From a virus (Duplodnaviria > Heunggongvirae > Uroviricota > Caudoviricetes), in the IMG/VR virus record IMGVR_UViG_2778261463_000010, positions 1-15,679 of that record: a stretch of 15,679 nt of DNA; one strand, 5' to 3'. The translations under genes and the position numbers were made by a program. Shown here one piece after another: positions 873-15,679 of the stretch; position 1 is the stretch's first letter; each line of letters opens with the position of its first letter. Under the pieces are notes generated by a model. It searched no databases. It saw only the letters and a program-made list of their open reading frames with translations, and was not told where the DNA came from.

Positions 873-3134
873 ATGATCAAGTTATCTGAAAAAGGCGTGT
901 TTCTCGCCAGTAATAACGAAATAATTGCCGAAGAACATTTCACCGGCGAAATTAAAAAAGAAGAAGCCAAAAAAGGCACTATTGCCTGGTCTATTCTCTC
1001 TTCGCATAATACGTCCGGAAATATGGATAAACTTAAAATTAAGTTTGATTCATTAGCCTCTCACGATATTACCTTTGTTGGTATTGTACAGACCGCTAAA
1101 GCGTCCGGTATGGAACGTTTCCCGCTGCCGTATGTGCTGACCAACTGCCATAACTCACTCTGCGCCGTCGGCGGCACTATTAACGGTGATGACCATGTTT
1201 TTGGTTTATCGGCGGCCCAGCGTTATGGCGGTATTTTTGTGCCTCCGCATATTGCGGTCATCCATCAATATATGCGTGAGATGATGGCAGGCGGCGGCAA
1301 AATGATCCTCGGGTCAGACAGCCACACCCGTTACGGTGCATTAGGGACAATGGCAGTCGGTGAGGGCGGCGGTGAGTTGGTAAAACAGCTGCTTAATGAC
1401 ACCTGGGATATCGACTATCCGGGCGTGGTTGCGGTGCATCTGACCGGAAAACCTGCGCCGTATGTGGGGCCACAGGATGTGGCGCTGGCTATCATTGGCG
1501 CGGTGTTCAAAAACGGTTACGTCAAAAACAAAGTCATGGAGTTCGTTGGACCGGGCGTTAGCGCGCTCTCTACCGATTTCCGTAACAGCGTTGACGTGAT
1601 GACCACTGAAACGACCTGTTTAAGTTCTGTCTGGCAAACCGATGAAGAAGTCCATAACTGGCTGGCGCTGCACGGTCGCGGCCAGGATTACTGCCAGCTT
1701 AACCCTCAACCGATGGCGTACTACGATGGCTGCATCAGCGTTGATTTAAGCGCCATCAAACCAATGATTGCGCTGCCGTTCCACCCGAGCAACGTGTATG
1801 AAATCGACACACTGAACCAGAACCTGACCGACATTCTGCGTGAGATTGAAATTGAGTCCGAACGCGTGGCGCACGGTAAAGCCAAACTCTCGCTGCTGGA
1901 TAAAGTGGAAAATGGTCGCCTGAAAGTGCAGCAGGGGATTATCGCGGGCTGTTCTGGCGGTAACTACGAAAACGTCATCGCGGCGGCGAATGCACTGCGC
2001 GGTCAATCCTGTGGCAATGACACCTTCTCGCTGGCAGTTTACCCGTCATCACAGCCGGTGTTTATGGATCTCGCCAAAAAAGGTGTGGTAGCAGATTTGA
2101 TTGGCGCAGGCGCAATCATCAGAACCGCGTTCTGCGGCCCATGCTTTGGCGCGGGCGATACGCCAATCAACAACGGTTTGAGTATTCGCCACACCACGCG
2201 TAACTTCCCGAACCGCGAAGGCTCTAAGCCAGCTAATGGGCAGATGTCAGCGGTGGCGTTGATGGACGCTCGTTCTATCGCTGCGACTGCGGCAAACGGT
2301 GGCTATTTAACCTCTGCCAGCGAACTTGATTGCTGGGACAACGTGCCGGAGTACGCCTTCGATGTAACGCCGTATAAAAACCGTGTTTATCAGGGCTTTG
2401 TGAAAGGGGCAACTCAGCAACCGCTGATTTACGGGCCGAACATTAAAGACTGGCCGGAATTGGGTGCGCTGACTGACAATATCGTCCTGAAAGTGTGCTC
2501 GAAGATCCTCGACGAAGTGACCACCACCGACGAACTGATTCCTTCCGGTGAAACCTCTTCTTATCGTTCAAATCCGATTGGTCTGGCGGAGTTTACCCTG
2601 TCTCGCCGCGATCCCGGTTATGTTAGCAGAAGTAAAGCGACTGCTGAGCTGGAAAATCAGCGTCTGGCGGGGAATGTCAGCGAGCTGACAGAGGTGTTTG
2701 CGCGCATTAAGCAGATTGCTGGTCAGGAGCATATTGATCCGCTGCAAACTGAAATTGGCAGCATGGTCTATGCGGTGAAACCAGGCGATGGTTCTGCGCG
2801 TGAACAGGCGGCGAGCTGCCAGCGTGTGATTGGCGGTCTGGCGAATATTGCCGAGGAGTACGCGACTAAACGCTATCGTTCTAACGTCATCAACTGGGGG
2901 ATGTTACCGCTGCAAATGGCGGAAGTACCAACCTTTGAAGTGGGGGATTACATTTACATCCCTGGCATTAAAGCGGCGCTGGATAATCCGGGTACGACGT
3001 TTAAAGGTTATGTGATCCATGAAGATGCGCCGGTAACGGAAATTACGCTCTATATGGAAAGTCTGACTGCTGAAGAGCGCGAGATTATCAAGGCGGGTAG
3101 TTTGATTAACTTCAATAAAAACCGTCAGATGTAA
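873..3134 (+). CDS. ybhJ: Aconitase-family protein YbhJ (753 aa)
   Basis: Long ORF with aconitase-like Cys/Gly-rich motifs. ATG at 873 is preceded by GGAG at 863-866. The six-frame track's longer form starts at GTG 849. Confidence 0.88.
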
Positions 3135-3147
3135 AAAGCGCCATGTG

Positions 3148-3352
<205 letters not shown>

Positions 3353-3367
3353 AATAGTTAATTGCTC

Positions 3368-4651
3368 TTACTTCTTCGCCTCTGCAACCACTTTACTACC
3401 CACGCCGCGGTTATTGTATTCCCACATGCGGTTGTAGTTAGTGTCATTCAGATTGCGCTGTATTTCGTCGTTATCATCTACGCTGCCGGTATTACCCGCA
3501 AACGGACGATTAGAGATCACCGCATCGGCCCACGGTTTAGCCGTGTTAAAACCTTCGTTGATGGCGCTATCACGGATCACCACCTGACCGTTGGTATTGG
3601 CATCAACATCCAGCGAGCGGCCCAGTTGCGCCACACCATCACCGAAAGCATTGAAACGGCTGTTTACGGCGAGGAAACCGTAGTAAATGTTGGACAGCGT
3701 AGCCGGTGCAAACACATACGCTTCTTGCTGAGTACGTGAGTTCACCACGCGGAATTCGGTGTTATCGAACACCACTGCGCCGCGACCAGAAACGATATCC
3801 ACATCCCCTTCAATGTAGCTGTTGGTCACCAGCGTACGCGGCTGACGATTTGTTTCCAGACGGTTCTGCACACCGCTGTTGGTGACAAAGAAGGTGTTCT
3901 GACGACCGAGAATGTTAACGTTGTTAATCTGTACCTGGTCACCATCAGTACGCAGTGCCACCGCCGGATGGTTACCTGCATCTACGCTATCGCCCAGCGT
4001 GTTTTCGATGGTCAGATTTTGCAGTTGCAGGCCATTGTTTTGTGACCAGAAGACCGCAGAGCAGAGAACACCGATACTGTCGCTGCGTTTGCTCTGGCAG
4101 CTATCGTACATATACCACGCTGGTTTACCTGGCATATATTTGCCGCGCGGGTTGACGTCGTGACGCCAGTCGGCAGGGCTCATGCCACCATCAAGGGAAA
4201 GCCCAATCTTCACATCAATCGGTTTTTCACCTGTACCGTACAGAGTAATTCCACCCGGAGCGGCAGGGACATATACCGTTCCCTGATACTCACCAGGCAT
4301 CACGGCAATATACTGGCGCTTGTTGGTACGCTTGATAATTGCCGCATCTACCGCCGCCTGAATCGTGGTATGCGTTACACCTTGAGTGCCCGCCGGGTCG
4401 ACAACAAAGTCAGGTTGCGCAGGCAGGGTAATCGGGGAAGGATTCCACGCTGCAGCACCTGGTGTCAGGGATGCAAAATAGTGTTGAGCATCGAAATTCT
4501 GCGCTTCTTTTGCCGACAGAATCGGGCGAGAAGAGGTACCAGGCGCGGTTTGATCAGAAGGACGTTGATCGGGCGGGGTTGAGCTACAGGCGGTCAGCGT
4601 CACGCCAAAAGCCAATGCCAGCGCCAGACGGGAAACTGAAAATGTGTTCAC
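3368..4651 (-). CDS. ybhC: Outer-membrane lipoprotein YbhC (pectinesterase-like, 427 aa)
   Basis: ORF with signal peptide and lipobox LTAC. GTG start preceded by GGAG. Sits immediately chromosomal-side of the att core, as expected for the attλ left flank. Confidence 0.88.
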   Translation of the reverse strand: MNTFSVSRLALALAFGVTLTACSSTPPDQRPSDQTAPGTSSRPILSAKEAQNFDAQHYFASLTPGAAAWNPSPITLPAQPDFVVDPAGTQGVTHTTIQAAVDAAIIKRTNKRQYIAVMPGEYQGTVYVPAAPGGITLYGTGEKPIDVKIGLSLDGGMSPADWRHDVNPRGKYMPGKPAWYMYDSCQSKRSDSIGVLCSAVFWSQNNGLQLQNLTIENTLGDSVDAGNHPAVALRTDGDQVQINNVNILGRQNTFFVTNSGVQNRLETNRQPRTLVTNSYIEGDVDIVSGRGAVVFDNTEFRVVNSRTQQEAYVFAPATLSNIYYGFLAVNSRFNAFGDGVAQLGRSLDVDANTNGQVVIRDSAINEGFNTAKPWADAVISNRPFAGNTGSVDDNDEIQRNLNDTNYNRMWEYNNRGVGSKVVAEAKK

Positions 4652-4689
4652 AGGTTGCTCCGGGCTATGAAATAGAAAAATGAATCCGT

Positions 4690-4784
4690 TGAAGCCTGCT
4701 TTTTATACTAAGTTGGCATTATAAAAAAGCATTGCTTATCAATTTGTTGCAACGAACAGGTCACTATCAGTCAAAATAAAATCA
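4690..4784. other. attL: Prophage attL: att core plus lambda P' arm
   Basis: GCTTTTTATACTAA at 4698-4711 followed by GTTGGCATTATAAAAAAGCATTGCTTATCAATTTGTTGCAACGAACAGGTCACTATCAGTCAAAATAAAATCATTATTTG, which matches the recalled lambda P' arm, running up to the int stop. Confidence 0.9.
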
Positions 4785-5855
4785 TTATTTGATTTCAATT
4801 TTGTCCCACTCCCTGCCTCTGTCATCACGATACTGTGATGCCATGGTGTCCGACTTATGCCCGAGAAGATGTTGAGCAAATTTATCGCTTATCTGCTTCT
4901 CATAGAGTCTTGCAGACAAACTGCGCAACTCGTGAAAGGTTGGCGGATCCCCTTCGAAGGAGAGACCTGATGCTTTTCGTGCGCGCATAAAATACCTTGA
5001 TACTGTGCCGGATGAAAGCGGTTCACGACGAGTAGATGCAATTATGGTTTCTCCGCCAAGAATCTTTTTGCATTTATCAAGTGTTTCCTTCATTGATATC
5101 CCGAGAGCATCAACATGCAATGTTGTTGGGATGGCAATTTTTACGCCTGTTTTGCTTTGCTCGACATAAAGATATCCATCTACGATATCAGACCACTTCA
5201 TTTCGCATAAATCACCAACTCGCTGCCCGGTAACAACAGCCAGTTCCATTGCAAGTCTAAGCCAACATGGTGATGATTCTGCTGCTTGATAAATTTTCAG
5301 GTATTCGTCAGCCGTAAGTCTTGATCTCCTTACCTCTGATTTTGCAGCGCGAGTGGCTGCGACCGGGTTTGTTGTTATATGGCCTTCAGCCATAGCCTCT
5401 CGGAATGCATCGCTCAGTGTTGATCTGATTAACTTGGCTGATGCCGCCTTTCCCTCGTCTATGTATCCATTGAGCATTGCCGCAATTTCTTTTGTGGTGA
5501 TGTCTTCAAGTGGAGCATCAGGCAGACCCCTCCTTATTGCTTTAATTTTGCTCATGTAATTTATGAGTGTCTTCTGCTTGATTCCTCTGCTGGCCAGGAT
5601 TTTTTCGTAGCGATCAAGCCATGAATGTAACGTAACGGAATTATCACTGTTGATTCTCGCTGTCAGAGGCTTGTGTTTGTGTCCTGAAAATAACTCAATG
5701 TTGGCCTGTATAGCTTCAGTGATTGCGATTCGCCTGTCTCGGCCTAATCCAAACTCTTTACCCGTCCTTGGGTCCCTGTAGCAGTAATATCCATTGTTTC
5801 TTATATAAAGGTTAGGGGGTAAATCCCGGCGCTCATGACTTCGCCTTCTTCCCAT
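4785..5855 (-). CDS. int: Lambda-type tyrosine integrase Int (356 aa)
   Basis: Translation MGRRRSHERRDLPPNLYIRNNGYYCYRDPRTGKEF...REWDKIEIK is essentially the recalled lambda Int, with the catalytic C-terminal HxxR...Y region present. Confidence 0.97.
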   Translation of the reverse strand: MGRRRSHERRDLPPNLYIRNNGYYCYRDPRTGKEFGLGRDRRIAITEAIQANIELFSGHKHKPLTARINSDNSVTLHSWLDRYEKILASRGIKQKTLINYMSKIKAIRRGLPDAPLEDITTKEIAAMLNGYIDEGKAASAKLIRSTLSDAFREAMAEGHITTNPVAATRAAKSEVRRSRLTADEYLKIYQAAESSPCWLRLAMELAVVTGQRVGDLCEMKWSDIVDGYLYVEQSKTGVKIAIPTTLHVDALGISMKETLDKCKKILGGETIIASTRREPLSSGTVSRYFMRARKASGLSFEGDPPTFHELRSLSARLYEKQISDKFAQHLLGHKSDTMASQYRDDRGREWDKIEIK

Positions 5856-5949
5856 TTCTGATCCTCTTCAAAAGGCTACCTGTTACTGGTCGATTTAAGT
5901 CAACCTTTACCGCTGATTCGTGGAACAGATATTCTCTTCCATCCTTAAC
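5833..5949 (-). pseudogene. xis: 3' remnant of excisionase gene xis (about the last 38 codons); 5' half replaced
   Basis: Minus strand encodes ...VKDGREYLFHESAVKVDLNRPVTGGLLKRIRNGKKAKS*, overlapping the int start as in lambda. Reading upstream, an in-frame TAG occurs with no start codon, and the sequence diverges from lambda beyond about 5949. Confidence 0.8.
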
Positions 5950-6123
5950 GCAGATCGGATGATTACCGGTTCGCTACCAGGGAAGAACGGGAAGGAAAGG
6001 TGAGCACGAATCTGATTTTCAAGGAGTGTCGCCAGAGTGCCGCGATGAAGCGGATGTTGGCATTTTATCGCGGCAATTTTCAATAGACTATGTACATAAA
6101 AATATCATTTTTTTAATACATGT

Positions 6124-6315
6124 CTAATTATTGGACGAAATTGGTTTTTGCTTTGGTTTAGTTAGCCTAGCAATCAAGCCAGAGGCAATAATGATGATCC
6201 AAGCAATTTGATGCAATGCTACTCCAATATAAGAACCTTTATAGATAATAAAGGCATAGATCGCTAGAAACGAAATAAATATCCATAACGAAAGTTGATA
6301 AATTTTGGCGCGCAT
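6124..6315 (-). CDS. Hypothetical small membrane protein (63 aa, two predicted TM helices, basic C-terminus)
   Basis: ORF MRAKIYQLSLWIFISFLAIYAFIIYKGSYIGVALHQIAWIIIIASGLIARLTKPKQKPISSNN. Two hydrophobic stretches. No clear Shine-Dalgarno. Lies in the AT-rich island, divergent from the lipoprotein operon. Confidence 0.45.
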   Translation of the reverse strand: MRAKIYQLSLWIFISFLAIYAFIIYKGSYIGVALHQIAWIIIIASGLIARLTKPKQKPISSNN

Positions 6316-6571
6316 ATTTAATCCAATCAATCAGAAAGACGAGTAATCATAGAGGTACTATCACCCGGGTAACTATTGCTATTATGAACGGATAGGATAG
6401 AGGCTTCAATAACATATGCATCAAGTATGATGGAATATGTAGGTGAAAATGACTTGTGTCAAATTTGTGGAAATGAGTACCATGTTTCTCTGAAATTGAT
6501 GTCGTTAATGGCTAGTGATAGTGAACTTTTTTACTTTATAATTCCTTTGGTTATAACAATAAGGTAAATTT

Positions 6572-7132
6572 ATGAAGAAGATAATATTATTAGCCATGAT
6601 TATTGGTTCTTTAACAGGTTGCGCTAGTGTGCCACCATTGAATTTTTCAACACCTAACGTGGGAGTTAGCCAGAAAAAAATAGATGCTGAAATTAAGTCA
6701 TTAACGGTATCACTTGCTCGTCCAGATGAGCAGAAAGGGGATATCACTGCTGGTATGGAGGCTATAACTCCAATTTGGCGTGAATCTTTGCAGGAAGCAC
6801 TCGACCGAATGACTATTTTTCGTGATAGTTCACCAAATACGGTTAGCTTAAATGTTAAAGTGTTGGCTCTTGACGTTCCTGCTTTTGGTGTTTCAATGAC
6901 AACTAAAGCAATTGCAAGGTATGAAATAATCAACCGTGCGAATGGTGATATTATATATACGCAGGATATTGAGTCTACCGGTACTGTTCCAGCCAGTTAC
7001 GCATTCTACGGTATTGTTCGAGCACGCGAATCTGTTAATCGCGCGGTGCAAAACAACATAACGCAGTTCTTGCAAGCATTAGAAAGTGTTGATCTTTCTC
7101 GTCCAATGTTTCCTGTTAGGGTAGCTAAATGA
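6572..7132 (+). CDS. Hypothetical lipoprotein (186 aa), first gene of a two-gene operon
   Basis: Signal peptide MKKIILLAMIIGSLTGC with lipobox LTGC. AAGG 6 nt upstream of the ATG. AT-rich codon usage. Stop overlaps the next start (ATGA). Confidence 0.8.
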   Translation: MKKIILLAMIIGSLTGCASVPPLNFSTPNVGVSQKKIDAEIKSLTVSLARPDEQKGDITAGMEAITPIWRESLQEALDRMTIFRDSSPNTVSLNVKVLALDVPAFGVSMTTKAIARYEIINRANGDIIYTQDIESTGTVPASYAFYGIVRARESVNRAVQNNITQFLQALESVDLSRPMFPVRVAK

Positions 7133-8679: not shown

Positions 8680-9038
8680 ATACCTACAGCATCACATTAC
8701 CCTGGCCTCCGAGCAATAATCGCTATTACCGCCATAATCGCGGGCGCACACACATCAGCGCAGAAGGGCAGGCATACCGCGATAACGTCACCCGAATCAT
8801 TAAAAACGCAATGCTGGATATCGGCCTGGCTATGCCAGTGAAAATCCGTATTGAGTGCCACATGCCGGATCGCCGTCGCCGTGACCTGGATAATCTGCAA
8901 AAAGCCGCTTTTGACGCACTCACCAAAGCAGGTTTCTGGCTGGATGATGCTCAGGTCGTTGATTACCGCGTTGTGAAGATGCCTGTTACCAAAGGTGGGA
9001 GGCTGGAACTGACCATCACCGAAATGGGGAATGAATGA
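8676..9038 (+). CDS. rusA: Holliday junction resolvase RusA (120 aa)
   Basis: Translation [23 protein letters not shown]...[12 protein letters not shown] matches recalled RusA. GTG start overlaps the ybcO stop (GTGA). Confidence 0.92.
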
Positions 9039-9175
9039 TGTTTGAGTTTAATATGGCAGAACTTCTTCGCCACCGCTGGATGCGCCTGCGCTTATATCGT
9101 TTCCCCAGTTCTGTTTTGACCGATTACCGAATACTGAGGAATTACGCCAAAACCCTGACAGGAGCAGGAGTATGA
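9035..9175 (+). CDS. ylcG: YlcG-like small protein (46 aa)
   Basis: ATG overlaps the rusA stop. Position and size match DLP12 ylcG. Short ORF with weak independent support. Confidence 0.55.
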
Positions 9176-9260
9176 AGTCAGAGATAACAATCAACTAATA
9201 CTGTTTTATTGATTTTTGCTTGTAATTGGCGTTCTGGTCTGATTTTTGTGGAGTAAGTTG

Positions 9261-9644
9261 ATGCGTGATATTCAGATGGTTCTTGAGCGTTGGGGAGCGT
9301 GGGCGGCTAATAATCATGAAGATGTGACCTGGTCGTCCATTGCCGCCGGTTTTAAGGGATTAATTACTTCAAAAGTAAAATCTCGCCCGCAATGTTGTGA
9401 CGATGACGCGATGATCATTTGCGGGTGCATGGCCCGTCTGAAAAAGAACAACAGCGATTTGCACGATTTATTAGTAGATTATTATGTAGTCGGTATGACA
9501 TTCATGTCACTGGCAGGTAAGCATTGCTGCTCTGATGGTTATATCGGGAAAAGGTTACAGAAGGCTGAGGGTATAATTGAAGGGATGTTAATGGCATTAG
9601 ATATCCGGTTAGAGATGGATATCGTTGTTAATAACTCTAATTAA
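9261..9644 (+). CDS. quuD: Late-gene antiterminator Q (QuuD-like, 127 aa)
   Basis: ATG at 9261 with GGAG 9 nt upstream. Cys-rich zinc-binding-like region ([12 protein letters not shown]...HCC). Position immediately upstream of the late region. Confidence 0.85.
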
Positions 9645-9659
9645 TATGCCAATTGTTTA

Positions 9660-9695
9660 CTAAAAATTATTAAAAATGGGGCGTTGAGACGCCCC
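9660..9695 (-). terminator. Intrinsic terminator on the minus strand, downstream of the porin gene
   Basis: Stem GGGGCGT/ACGCCCC (9678-9684 and 9689-9695) with a 4-nt loop, followed on the minus strand by AUUUUUAAUAAUUUUU. Confidence 0.6.
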
Positions 9696-9832
9696 CAAAA
9701 ATAAAGGGTAATATATAACAGAAGGTTTATATAGTTAGAAGCAAGGTTGTGCTCCTAAAGGAAGTGGCTTGAGGGAGCCACTTATATGTTGGGGAGGCAA
9801 AGCCTCCCGCAACATATCTTTTAGTAATCAAA
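9660..9832 (-). ncRNA. ipeX: Candidate IpeX-like small RNA / structured 3' region downstream of the porin gene
   Basis: Three consecutive stable stem-loops (9678-9695, 9762-9783, 9784-9817) in the porin 3' intergenic region. In DLP12 the sRNA IpeX is reported at the 3' end of nmpC. Boundaries not determined. Confidence 0.4.
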
Positions 9833-10915
9833 TTAGAACTGGTAAACCATACCTACAGCAACGATATCATCGGTAGCAACGCCAGATGCTTTCGTGAAAT
9901 CGCTCTTATCAATCAGGTTGATTTTGTAATCAACAAAAGTGGACATATTTTTGTTGAAGTAATAGGTTGCACCTACATCAATATATTCAACCAGGTCCTG
10001 ATCACCCCACGCACCCAAGTCTTTTCCTTTAGATTGCAGGTAAGCAACGGACGGACGCAGACCGAAGTCGAACTGATATTGTGCAACTACTTCGAAGTTT
10101 TGTGCTTTGTTGGCAATATGGTTATTACCAAAAACAGTCATGTTCTGGGTTTCAGAATAGGTGGTAGCCAGATAGATGTTGTTCGCATCATATTTCAGAC
10201 CAGCTGCCCATACTTCAGCATTTTGACCAGATGCATTCAGGCTGTTGTTACCGTAGATAACCTGATTATTAGTGCGGTCAGATTTAGCATAGGTTGCACC
10301 TACACCGAATCCTTCATACTCATAAGTAGTGGAGAAACCGAAACCATCACCATTAGCTTCAGTTACGTCAGTGCGGTCATTTTTACCCTGATACTGAGCA
10401 GCAAAGTTCAGACCATCAACCAGACCAAAGAAGTCATTGTTACGATAAGTTGCAACACCTGTGGTGCGACCAGTCATGAATACATCTGTTTGGGTCCAGG
10501 TATCGCCACCGAATTCTGGCAGAACGTCGGTCCATGCACCAATATCGTATGCTACACCGTAGTTACGGCCATAATCGATGGAGCCGTAGTCACCGAATTT
10601 CAGGCCAGCGAAGGCAAGACGGGTTTTATCTTTGGAGGAACCTTGAGATTCAGCGCGGTTGCCTTTGAATTCATATTCCCACTGACCGAAACCAGTCAGT
10701 TGATCGTTGATTTGGGTTTCACCTTTGAAGCCAAGACGGGCATAAGTAGTATCACCATCATCTGCATCATTAGAGGAGAAGTAGTGCTTAGCATTAACTT
10801 TCCCGTACAGATCCAGCTTGTTACTGTCTTTATTATAAATTTCAGCTGCCTGAGCAGACATCGCCATCAGTACTGATGCAGCTACAGCAGAAATTGCCAC
10901 TGTTAATTTTTTCAT
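9833..10915 (-). CDS. nmpC: Prophage-encoded general porin of the NmpC/Lc/OmpD family (360 aa precursor), apparently intact
   Basis: Signal peptide [23 protein letters not shown], then [16 protein letters not shown]...; Gly/Tyr-rich beta-barrel pattern; C-terminal ...VGMVYQF. The ORF track's longer form starts at 10975. Confidence 0.93.
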
Positions 10916-11341
10916 CGTGAGCCCTTTTTTTGAACTATTATTAAAAAATGATGTCACTGCGCGATAAATATTCATCTAATCAATGTGATTATTTCAAGAT
11001 GTAAGTTTTGGTTTCTCATTTGATTTGTGAAGTAGATCTCTATTTTTATCTGAACTTTTTCTATCGAATCCTATTCATGGCTCTTGGCTGAATAAAAATA
11101 AATCTATTAGCCAATTTATATTAATGGCTGTTATTTATAAGCGCTCTATAATTTGAAGATTCAATTTAAACCAGCTAAAAATAACGCTGGAAATTATTTG
11201 TTGGTTATTTGTTGAGATTTGCTTATGTATTTGTAGTGGTGTTTTCAATACTCGGTAGCATTCTCGCAAATATCATTTAGTGGTTTACGTACGTAAAAAA
11301 TTGGTTATGCTGTTAAGAGTGGTTACTTCGTCACACAGCTT

Positions 11342-11375
11342 AAACCCGCCGTCGAGCGGGTTTTTCCATTTTTTG
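11342..11375 (+). terminator. Intrinsic terminator-like hairpin plus U-tract upstream of the lysis cassette (possible tR'-type site)
   Basis: Stem AAACCCGC/GCGGGTTT with loop CGTCGA, followed by TTTCCATTTTTTG. About 130 nt upstream of the holin start. Confidence 0.55.
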
Positions 11376-11502
11376 AGTCTCGATATTAGCTGATAACCCA
11401 ATACCTGAGTTATTCACTGACTCCGAGTCTGTTACGTTTCTGCTTTTTTGCGATACGTTGTATTCCCTCAATTTACACCCGCTTTGTCTGCGAGGTGGGG
11501 TT

Positions 11503-11718
11503 ATGAAATCCATGGATAAGTTAACAACGGGTGTCGCCTATGGCACCTCAGCAGGTAGTGCCGGTTACTGGTTTTTACAGCTGCTCGATAAAGTCACGCC
11601 CTCACAGTGGGCAGCAATAGGTGTGCTGGGTAGCCTGGTATTTGGCCTGCTGACGTACCTGACAAACCTTTATTTCAAGATTAAAGAAGATAAGCGCAAG
11701 GCTGCGAGAGGTGAATAA
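11503..11718 (+). CDS. essD: Class II holin (P21 S-type pinholin, EssD-like, 71 aa) with dual-start motif
   Basis: Translation [24 protein letters not shown]...[15 protein letters not shown] resembles recalled S21. Met1/Met4 dual start. GAGGTGGGG SD. Confidence 0.88.
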
Positions 11719-12215
11719 TGCCTCCATCATTACGAAAAGCCGTTGCTGCTGCTATTGGTGGCGGAGCAATTGCTATAGCATCAGTGTTAATTACTGGCCC
11801 AAGTGGTAACGATGGTCTGGAAGGTGTCAGCTACGTACCATACAAAGATATCGTTGGCGTATGGACTGTATGTCACGGACACACCGGAAAAGACATCATG
11901 CTCGGTAAAACGTATACCAAAGCAGAATGCAAAGCACTCTTGAATAAAGACCTTGCCACTGTCGCCAGACAAATTAACCCGTACATCAAAGTCGATATAC
12001 CGGAAACAACGCGCGGCGCTCTTTACTCATTCGTTTACAACGTGGGTGCTGGCAATTTCAGAACATCGACGCTTCTTCGCAAAATAAACCAGGGCGATAT
12101 CAAAGGCGCATGTGATCAGCTACGTCGCTGGACATATGCTGGCGGTAAGCAATGGAAAGGTCTCATGACTCGTCGTGAGATTGAGCGTGAAATCTGTTTG
12201 TGGGGTCAGCAATGA
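11718..12215 (+). CDS. rrrD: SAR endolysin (P21 R-type lysozyme, RrrD-like, 165 aa)
   Basis: N-terminal Gly/Ala-rich signal-anchor-release segment [20 protein letters not shown] followed by a T4-lysozyme-like catalytic region. Start overlaps the holin stop (TAATG). Confidence 0.93.
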
Positions 12216-12673
12216 ACAGAGTAACCGCGATTATCTCCGCTCTGGTTATCTGCATCATCGTCTACCTGTCATGGGCTGTTAATCATTACCGTGATAACGC
12301 CATTACCTACAAAGCCCAGCGCGACAAAAATGCCAGAGAACTGAAGCTGGCGAACGCGGCAATTACTGACATGCAGATGCGTCAGCGTGATGTTGCTGCG
12401 CTCGATGCAAAATACACGAAGGAGTTAGCTGATGCGAAAGCTGAAAATGATGCTCTGCGTGATGATGTTGCCGCTGGTCGTCGTCGGTTGCACATCAAAG
12501 CAGTCTGTCAGTCAGTGCGTGAAGCCACCACCGCCTCCGGCGTGGATAATGCAGCCTCCCCCCGACTGGCAGACACCGCTGAACGGGATTATTTCACCCT
12601 CAGAGAGAGGCTGATCACTATGCAAAAACAACTGGAAGGAACCCAGAAGTATATTAATGAGCAGTGCAGATAG
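12212..12673 (+). CDS. rzpD: Spanin inner-membrane subunit Rz (153 aa)
   Basis: N-terminal TM helix plus coiled-coil region. Near-identical to recalled lambda Rz. Start overlaps the endolysin stop. Confidence 0.93.
12432..12614 (+). CDS. rzoD: Spanin outer-membrane lipoprotein Rz1 (60 aa), embedded in Rz in the +1 frame
   Basis: Lipobox VVGC and proline-rich [13 protein letters not shown], entirely within Rz. Confidence 0.85.
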
Positions 12674-14699: not shown

Positions 14700-14830
14700 G
14701 ATAATTATTATCATTTTGCGGGTCCTTTCCGGCATGTGGACCCGTTACGGGGCGTCGACCTCGCGGTTTTTCGCTATTTATGAGATTTTTTGAGGGGGTG
14801 GTTGTTGTTTAATTGTTTGGTATATCTAAT
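14700..14830. other. cos: cos region (cosQ/cosN/cosB); cosN-like site near 14750-14761
   Basis: GGGGCGTCGACCTCGCGGTTTTTCGCTATTTATGA closely resembles the recalled lambda cohesive-end region GGGCGGCGACCTCGCGGGTTTTCGCTATTTATGA. Located about 220 nt upstream of the Nu1-like start. Confidence 0.7.
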
Positions 14831-14977
14831 TGATAAGTAAGGTAAAAATAAAATAAATACAACAACCTTACGGTGTATTTTGATGTCATTAATGTGAAAA
14901 AATTCAATGATATCAAATGGTTTTGTAAAAACACATGGTTGTTGTATCGCTTTTTATCGATGACTTATGGAGAGGAG

Positions 14978-15484
14978 ATGGCCTTTTTATTGAATAAAAG
15001 TGATATGGCCTCCTCCATCGGTATCTCTGTTCAGGCATTTGATAAATGGGGCGTTCCTCCTGTCGAGCGTCGGGGGAGGGAAGTTTTTTATGACGTTAAA
15101 ACTGTACTGGAGATAGATCGCGAGCGGCGACAACACAATCATAGAACACCTGATGACGGGGGCGATCTGGAGGAAAGGCTGCTTCGGGCCAGAGCTGAAC
15201 TGACAGAAGAACAGGCCGTAGCTCAAAAACTTAAAAATCAGGTAACCGAAGGTAAGCTCATCGATTCAGACTTCTGCGTTTTCGCCCTCAGCAAGCTGGC
15301 GATGGCATTGTCCAGTACGCTTGATTCTATTCCGTTATCCATGCAGCGACAGTTCCCGGATTTAACGCCACGTCATCTTGACCATCTGAAAACCCTTATT
15401 GCGAAGGGCGCAAATCAGTGTGCGCGGGCAGGGGATAAATTACCGGATTTGCTGGATGAATATATCAGAGCAACAACTGAATAA
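14978..15484 (+). CDS. nohD: Terminase small subunit (Nu1/NohD-like); start codon uncertain
   Basis: Aligns with lambda Nu1: the segment NKSDMASSIGISVQAFDKW against NKKQLADIFGASIRTIQNW, and similar C-terminus. ATG 14978 has GGAGAGGAG immediately upstream; alternatives are TTG 14939, ATG 14960 or GTG 14873. Confidence 0.8.
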   Translation: MAFLLNKSDMASSIGISVQAFDKWGVPPVERRGREVFYDVKTVLEIDRERRQHNHRTPDDGGDLEERLLRARAELTEEQAVAQKLKNQVTEGKLIDSDFCVFALSKLAMALSSTLDSIPLSMQRQFPDLTPRHLDHLKTLIAKGANQCARAGDKLPDLLDEYIRATTE

Positions 15485-15488
15485 TCTG

Positions 15489-15679
15489 ATGGCTGCCGTT
15501 TCGGTTGCGCTGCAGCCTCTGGTCAGGGTTGTACCGATGACGGCAGTTGAATGGGCTGACCAGTATTATTATCTGCCGAAAGAATCCTCATACGGTGACG
15601 GCGAATGGAAAACGCTGCCGTTCCAGATCGCCATCATGAACAGTATGGGGAATGATCAGGTCCGCACTGTTAATCTGAT
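15489..15679 (+). CDS. A: Terminase large subunit (gpA-like), N-terminal fragment; continues beyond the window
   Basis: Translation MAAVSVALQPLVRVVPMTAVEWADQYYYLPKESSYGDGEWKTLPFQIAIMNSMG resembles the recalled lambda gpA N-terminus (TAVEWADANYYLPKES...). Confidence 0.88.
   Translation, partial: MAAVSVALQPLVRVVPMTAVEWADQYYYLPKESSYGDGEWKTLPFQIAIMNSMGNDQVRTVNL

Follow-up and report, generated by a model that had tools for sequence, protein, structure and literature searches.

An intact NmpC/Lc-type porin gene between the antiterminator gene Q and a homolog of the late promoter PR' in a DLP12-like prophage

We found an uninterrupted porin gene of the NmpC/Lc type in a 15,679-nucleotide stretch of viral DNA (IMG/VR record IMGVR_UViG_2778261463_000010; hereafter, the window), where it lies between the gene for the late antiterminator Q (quuD) and the lysis genes, on the opposite strand. 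Knowledge of this porin type dates from the 1970s-80s (PMC11677980, which cites Blasband et al. 1986), and the gene in the window is an already known one. From the comparisons described below, we judge it very probable that this ORF is a functional NmpC/Lc allele and represents a lysogenic-conversion gene ('moron') carried by lambdoid prophages of the DLP12/PA-2 type, and, jointly with this, that the late promoter PR' lies on the lysis side of the porin gene, with the porin and late units diverging.

The porin gene and the prophage that carries it

The porin gene extends over 9833-10915 on the minus strand. It consists of 360 codons and a stop codon, and the ORF call and the translation contained no frameshift and no internal stop, in agreement with the initial annotation, which had described the ORF as uninterrupted. 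The longest form of the ORF starts at the ATG at 10975; the ATG at 10915 gives a canonical signal peptide of 23 residues (encoded by 10847-10915), which ends in AQA and is followed by AE. The start and stop are identical to those of the RefSeq protein WP_000737275.1 from strain FDAARGOS_1248, which is 100% identical to the window over 9000-12200.

At the sequence level, the protein is a general porin. It matches the Pfam profile PF00267 (Porin_1) over positions 1-337 of 337 (E = 3e-153), and mature residues 24-360 align end to end with the solved 16-strand chains of OmpK37, OmpC, OmpK36, PhoE, and OmpF (E = 1e-137 to 1e-116), which settles the fold. The protein contains PEFGGD (the PEFGG region is residues 132-140) and ends in VYQF, that is, in a terminal Phe. 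In porins, PEFGG is the constriction-loop motif, the C-terminal aromatic residue (Phe) serves outer-membrane assembly, and the signal peptide is cleavable.

Identity to the known proteins and the position of the gene place it in the NmpC/Lc group. The protein is 91% identical to Lc of phage PA-2 (GenBank J02580) and 92% identical to K-12 NmpC over the first 346 residues of the latter, the part preceding IS5, and the gene, encoded on the opposite strand, separates Q from the holin gene and has a conserved upstream region. As the protein also aligns end to end with solved porins, the barrel is judged to be intact; the alignment check thus bore out the initial annotation in both the assignment to the NmpC/Lc type and the integrity of the barrel. 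RefSeq labels the protein 'porin OmpC', a label derived from an NCBIfam model at the subfamily level (score, 518 bits; cutoff, 484). The printed alignments with OmpK37 and OmpC, judged by eye, contain many more substitutions than those with Lc and NmpC, as well as several indels. The gene shares with OmpC, OmpF, PhoE, and Salmonella OmpD the 16-stranded trimeric porin family, the PEFGG motif, and the C-terminal Phe, but it differs from these chromosomal porins in being borne on a prophage and in its regulation, with activation by CRP and induction when carbon is limiting (PMC8144880).

Relative to Lc and NmpC, the changes, two small indels among them, are concentrated at residues ~182-187, 216-231, and 263-267 (window ~10113-10372), and the alignment with OmpK37 also has indels at the first two of these stretches. 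From the sequences, the three variable stretches probably form surface loops, a location that would be consistent with diversification of receptors or antigens. A 280-codon ORF on the plus strand (10034-10876) runs antisense within the porin gene, and the corresponding ORF in phage 434B is annotated as a hypothetical pseudogene. Most likely, the ORF is only a shadow of the porin reading frame.

The window represents a DLP12-like defective lambdoid prophage. The gene order ybcN, ninE, ybcO, rusA, ylcG, quuD, porin, essD, rrrD, rzpD, bor, ybcV matches that of K-12 DLP12, with 96-97% identity. In this part of the window (3368-6100), the prophage adjoins ybhC, the left flank of the lambda attachment site (the site lies between ybhC and ybhB), and carries a 356-aa lambda-type integrase. 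Besides the immunity, N, and replication region, another 4.25 kb (2697-6945 of the extracted locus L001) is absent relative to FDAARGOS_1248 and the nearest complete-genome relatives, and the int/xis end is joined to a ren fragment. This exact int-ren arrangement was present in none of the complete Escherichia coli genomes in our collection. The identity with DLP12-like relatives stops at 14790, and 14791-15679 contains a different allele of a Nu1-type small terminase gene, which marks another mosaic joint; the same allele occurs at 99% identity in other E. coli prophages.

We compared the locus with those of nmpC and lc, both of which were reportedly sequenced in 1986. In the case of nmpC, which belongs to the cryptic prophage DLP12 (qsr') of K-12, the gene and the module ylcG-quuD-porin (reverse)-essD-rrrD-rzpD-bor are the same, and the DNA from Q to the holin gene is 93-97% identical to the window. 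The K-12 copy, however, is broken by IS5 after codon 346, whereas the copy in the window is intact, and K-12 DLP12 is located at argU, whereas the prophage in the window is located between ybhC and ybhB with a lambda-like integrase. In the case of PA-2, the Lc gene (protein 2) shares the signal peptide (record J02580 annotates one of the same length), the upstream region with annotated CRP sites, the flanking Q end, and the lysis genes. The allelic changes from Lc fall in the three variable stretches described above, and PA-2 is a viable phage, whereas the window is a deleted prophage.

The module is widespread. The whole Q-porin-holin module was found in 36 deposited phage genomes with 92-99% identity. 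At least 80% of window 9000-12200 was present in 2318 of the 5426 complete E. coli genomes, and at least 80% of the porin gene was present in 2503 of them (~46%), with up to six copies per genome. The stock of phage 434B acquired the K-12 version of the module together with its IS5. In JNEC-KY204 (NZ_AP045180.1, 3569197-3571056), a 100%-identical porin gene is split by IS1, which adds another kind of IS disruption to the IS5 insertions in K-12 and 434B.

The flanks of the porin gene

On the 3' side, the porin gene is convergent with quuD (9261-9644, plus strand), as described in the initial annotation. The same annotation had assigned a terminator to the porin gene, and our predictions agree with this. 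On the porin strand, the terminator scan and the fold placed an intrinsic terminator-like site at 9668-9695 (minus strand), with a stem at 9695-9678 followed by ATTTTTAATAATTTTT; this site is likely the 3' end of the porin mRNA, with terminator function predicted from the scan and the fold. Two stable hairpins were found in the fold right after the porin stop codon (9759-9818), the second of which precedes CTTTTAGT on the plus strand. The minus strand of 9700-9835, the 136 nt past the porin stop, folds with -47.1 kcal/mol (z = -8.8), and the plus strand of 9740-9835 folds with -42.1 kcal/mol (z = -6.3). The porin mRNA would therefore be expected, if the predictions hold, to end in a cluster of hairpins and terminator just short of Q.

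The second hairpin of 9759-9818 may also stop transcripts leaving Q in the other direction, and the terminator scan called no plus-strand terminator at 9759-9818. This point bears on a further way in which antisense porin RNA might arise. In intact relatives, polymerase modified by N in the early right operon would continue past Q, ignore the hairpins at 9678-9818, and enter the porin gene during lytic growth; it is established lambda biology that N-antiterminated PR transcripts read through terminators, and the plus-strand hairpins after Q have only a short T-run and went uncalled in the scan. The prophage in the window, however, lacks the immunity region, N, and the replication region, with int joined to a ren fragment, and the source of such transcripts is absent here. 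We consider antisense RNA from the early operon unlikely, while giving it some weight.

On the 5' side, the DNA is AT-rich, with a GC content of 0.275-0.29 over 10900-11299 compared with 0.42-0.50 in the adjacent genes. The initial annotation had taken all of 10916-11340 as the upstream region of the porin gene. The AT-rich composition was confirmed for the part nearer the gene, but the distal part does not belong to the regulatory DNA of the porin gene. From 11284 to 11340, and further to 11375, it consists of a promoter and a hairpin terminator on the plus strand, with homologs at the late promoter of Stx phages, as described in the next section. The porin promoter region PnmpC corresponds to 10916-11114 (minus strand), the 199 bp upstream of the ATG, as judged from conservation and from deletion data in K-12, where removal of -199 to -1 abolishes PnmpC activity and the start was confirmed by 5' RACE (PMC11677980). 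PnmpC of K-12 has been reported to respond positively to CRP, at two sites, and to be repressed by OmpR, IHF, and MprA, and the small RNA RyhB is reported to control nmpC post-transcriptionally (PMC11677980). One of the CRP binding sites annotated in the PA-2 lc record (J02580, misc_binding 1363-1383) maps through the alignment to 11023-11043 (minus strand) in the window, where it reads AGAGA-N6-TCACA, with one perfect half-site.

The mean column identity of the porin-holin intergenic region among the window, K-12, and PA-2 is 97%. A generic sigma-70 scan of the window called neither PnmpC nor the PR' homolog, though it called the PR' of Sakai; thus, the promoter positions given here rest on homology and the literature. 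In summary, a terminator and hairpins are predicted for the porin gene, and a promoter of its own has been documented for the K-12 gene (PMC11677980); the corresponding DNA of the window has a mean column identity of 97%, and the scan called no promoter in it. It would be transcribed leftward from its own sigma-70 promoter, located no more than about 200 bp from the ATG.

The late promoter homolog and the lysis genes

We found a homolog of the late promoter PR' at 11284-11311 (plus strand), with the -35 element TTTACG (11284-11289), a 16-bp spacer, and the -10 element TATGCT (11306-11311), by alignment with Stx phage phi345 and Sakai Sp5. The window aligns over 11284-11375 with the annotated promoter and terminator of phi345, and the Sakai Sp5 counterpart of the promoter is TTTACG-16-TATCAT. 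In the motif search, each of the two conserved PR' motifs occurred once in the whole window, at 11284 and 11315, on the side of the porin gene that faces the lysis genes. Conserved TAAGAGTGGTTAC follows the TATGCT in the window, and then come a stem at 11342-11363 and a T-run to 11375. The -10 element of the window is weaker than the TATCAT of Sakai.

The start of Sakai PR' was mapped by dRNA-seq and the 3' end by Term-seq, and the two are 258 nt apart (Sy et al., PMC7547250). The Sakai coordinates in that study fit NC_002695.2 after a shift of +142, which puts the 3' end at the final T of a hairpin and T6 and the start 7 nt past the -10 element TATCAT. The shifted start is the last A of TAAGAGTGG, and the equivalent base in the window is 11318. 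By this homology, we infer that the late transcript starts at A11318.

The hairpin and T-run at 11342-11375 (plus strand) resemble tR' and would cover about +25 to +58 of the late transcript, as judged from the terminator scan and from homology to the first hairpin in phi345 and Sakai. This hairpin is the sole terminator-like element between the PR' homolog and the holin ATG at 11503; hence, Q-dependent read-through at 11342-11375 is the likely control step, with termination and Q action at this position also assigned by homology. Late transcription would thus proceed rightward from about 11318, meet the hairpin, and need Q to reach the holin gene. For this module, the start, the termination, and the action of Q are all predicted from the homology with Stx phages.

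The hairpin in the window matches the first hairpin and T7 of Sakai Sp5, which extends from +24 to about +52 (869-890 of the extracted locus L010). The Sakai transcript ends at a second hairpin at +258 (PMC7547250; L010 1076-1103), for which the window has no counterpart, and just 127 nt separate the T-run of the window hairpin from the holin ATG. As the mapped 3' end in Sakai is at the second hairpin, the first one is possibly an inefficient or leaky terminator. An Rfam scan of 9000-12000 at E <= 1 gave no described RNA family; a hit to Trp_leader over the PR'/hairpin region was rejected as chance-level (20.8 bits against a gathering score of 41).

The lysis cassette follows at 11503-12673 (plus strand) and consists of the phage-21-type holin gene essD (11503-11718), the lysozyme gene rrrD (11718-12215), and the Rz-type spanin gene rzpD (12212-12673). 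The products match Pfam Phage_holin_2_1, Phage_lysozyme, and Phage_lysis, and the RefSeq annotation is the same. Sixteen base pairs of the holin leader (GTATCGCAAAAAAGCA, window 11441-11456) are present in the window and PA-2 and are missing in K-12. With quuD at 9261-9644 and essD from 11503, the porin gene is situated between Q and the lysis genes as the initial annotation stated.

In lambda, 21, 82, and 933W, the late promoter PR' lies right after Q. The initial annotation had reasoned that, if late transcription begins shortly after Q, it would cross the porin gene in the antisense direction, so that the porin and the late genes would be expressed in a mutually exclusive manner. PR' does abut Q in lambda and in 933W-type phages. 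The Q-porin gap (9645-9832), however, contained no plus-strand promoter-like site in the promoter scan, and it holds the terminators of the porin gene itself. Each PR' motif occurs only within 11284-11326, with a hairpin terminator about 25 nt past the predicted start as in Stx phages, and across the 100 contigs surveyed below, the distance from Q to the PR' motif ranges from 45 nt to 3 kb. A PR' immediately downstream of Q, with Q-modified transcription crossing the porin gene, is thus highly improbable, and the mutual exclusion by antisense late transcription that had been deduced from it is not supported, the porin and late promoters being divergent. Phage 434B was deposited as a complete phage genome and carries this module with its porin gene interrupted by IS5. 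We considered it as evidence on the site of PR'; it shows that a long distance from Q to the holin gene is evidently tolerated, but it does not discriminate between the models.

Another site of initiation for the lysis genes has been proposed in the case of DLP12. The cassette might be driven mainly by a sigma-E-dependent promoter, essDp, with a start near 10965 abutting the porin start codon, and Q would act on that transcript. Rueggeberg et al. in 2015 reportedly described essDp as sigma-E-dependent, and overexpression of RpoE is said to have stimulated the DLP12 lysis promoter. The published reporter fragment for this promoter (primers of Pasqua et al., PMC7918800) covers the equivalent of window 10844 to about 11625. 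It lies wholly beyond the body of the porin ORF, toward the lysis genes, and spans the PR' region; as it is numbered -121 to +650, with primers at 10844 and about 11625, the start would be near 10965 (about 12876 in the K-12 extract, L002). The implied start is beside the core of the porin promoter, about 350 nt upstream of the PR' homolog, and conflicts with a start at 11318. A transcript from about 10965, however, must still pass the PR' region and the hairpin at 11342-11375. Moreover, the segment conserved with Stx phages is 11284-11375 and not 10940-10990, and Q proteins of the QuuD class load at a sigma-70-dependent promoter-proximal pause, as established for lambda, 82, and 21. We regard essDp as the main driver of the cassette as quite unlikely; transcription from it would in any case leave the porin ORF and not cross it.

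We therefore return to PR' at 11284-11311 as the preferred late promoter. The porin and late promoters would then stand back to back, with their starts a few hundred base pairs apart, and because the two units diverge, late transcription would not cross the porin gene.

Cargo between Q and PR'

The quuD gene (9261-9644, plus strand) encodes a DLP12-type late antiterminator Q of 127 aa, which matches Pfam PF06530 (Phage_antitermQ, E = 3.5e-53) and, more distantly, the solved Q of phage 21 (E = 8e-7). Up to the motif RLEMD, QuuD shares 77% identity with the Q of Stx phage phi345 (933W/Sakai type); beyond it, the C-terminal tails diverge, and a mosaic joint lies directly after this motif (window 9621-9644). 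Three tails follow RLEMD: IVVNNSN in the DLP12 type, RYVERELPGG... in the 933W type, which is 17 residues longer, and ADCLR in Lambda_2E9. The cassette extends over about 9.60-11.28 kb and includes a new C-terminal tail of Q, the porin terminators, the porin gene, and its promoter region; it very probably replaced the last ~20 codons of Q and parted Q from its cognate PR'.

A search of IMG/VR with a 35-nt PR' pattern found 119 contigs, of which the 100 with enough upstream DNA were assessed. A PF06530-type Q was located upstream on the same strand in every one of them. In 18 contigs, the gap between the end of the Q match and the -35 element was 45 nt, the Stx arrangement. Another 48 contigs had a porin gene on the reverse strand and a gap of 1642-1661 nt, and the remaining 34 had other cargo and a gap of 0.6-3.0 kb. 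PR' thus appears from sequence to travel with this Q family, and the DNA between the two is a variable cargo slot. The elements that flank the porin gene are adjacent in related phages, as is the case for morons: in phi345 and Sakai, Q either adjoins PR' or overlaps it. By these comparisons, the porin gene is very probably a moron that was inserted into the space separating Q from PR' and does not belong to the late operon.

Other cargo in the gap includes Blc lipocalin and YbgA-like genes in Lambda_2E9 (L008, 561-2237), two reverse-strand ORFs in SfII (L009, 2082-3696), and, in the IMG/VR loci, ORF6N antirepressor-like genes, a homolog of the NA37 nucleoid protein, and several reverse-strand ORFs without a family. 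A GmrSD_N/NsnA-like defence protein was also encoded in the gap, beside an ORF that looks, on visual inspection, like a cytosine methyltransferase. Q proteins with just 45-50% identity to QuuD (SfII-like, ~103-113 aa) precede the same strict 35-nt PR' motif (for example, in IMG/VR loci L015, L017, and L034). In Lambda_2E9, which has a QuuD-like Q, BLAST gave no match to the PR' segment of the window; by eye, a suggestive TTTACA-16-TATGAT, with a spacer beginning ATCGTAAAAA, is present about 1.9 kb downstream of Q, past other cargo.

The stx genes of 933W/Sakai-type phages are cargo tied to the same Q family (77% identity) and the same PR' sequence. Whereas stx follows PR'-tR' on the late strand and is Q-dependent, the porin gene precedes PR', lies on the opposite strand, and would be expressed from a promoter of its own; it thus lacks both the position and the strand of Q-dependent late-operon cargo. 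The porin and stx are opposite solutions for the expression of cargo.

The second CRP site annotated for lc in the PA-2 record maps to 11318-11338, that is, +1 to +21 of the predicted late transcript. It contains one perfect TGTGA half-site on the minus strand, and the PR' regions of Stx phages without the porin keep the stretch with the half-site lost (CGTGG). Under carbon limitation, the condition that induces the porin, cAMP-CRP bound here could block or pause the late promoter, so that porin and late expression would be reciprocal by another route. In the QuuD family, the Q-PR' gap resembles a slot for cargo that late transcription does not reach; this slot and the block by CRP together form a speculative proposal, to which we assign only a small likelihood.

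The initial annotation had suggested that an intact prophage porin can alter the outer membrane, and published data support this. According to proteomics, NmpC makes up about 2% of the proteome of K-12 NCM3722, in which nmpC is intact; it is the major porin there when carbon is limiting, and loss of nmpC is accompanied by a rise in OmpC (PMC8144880). An intact copy such as that in the window would have ordinary consequences for permeability, sensitivity to colicins and phages, and the balance with OmpC. The added value of the present analysis is a correction: in this Q family (the QuuD type), cargo may be carried between Q and PR', where the porin, unlike stx, would be insulated from late transcription. 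This matters when the timing of prophage cargo expression is predicted from gene order alone.
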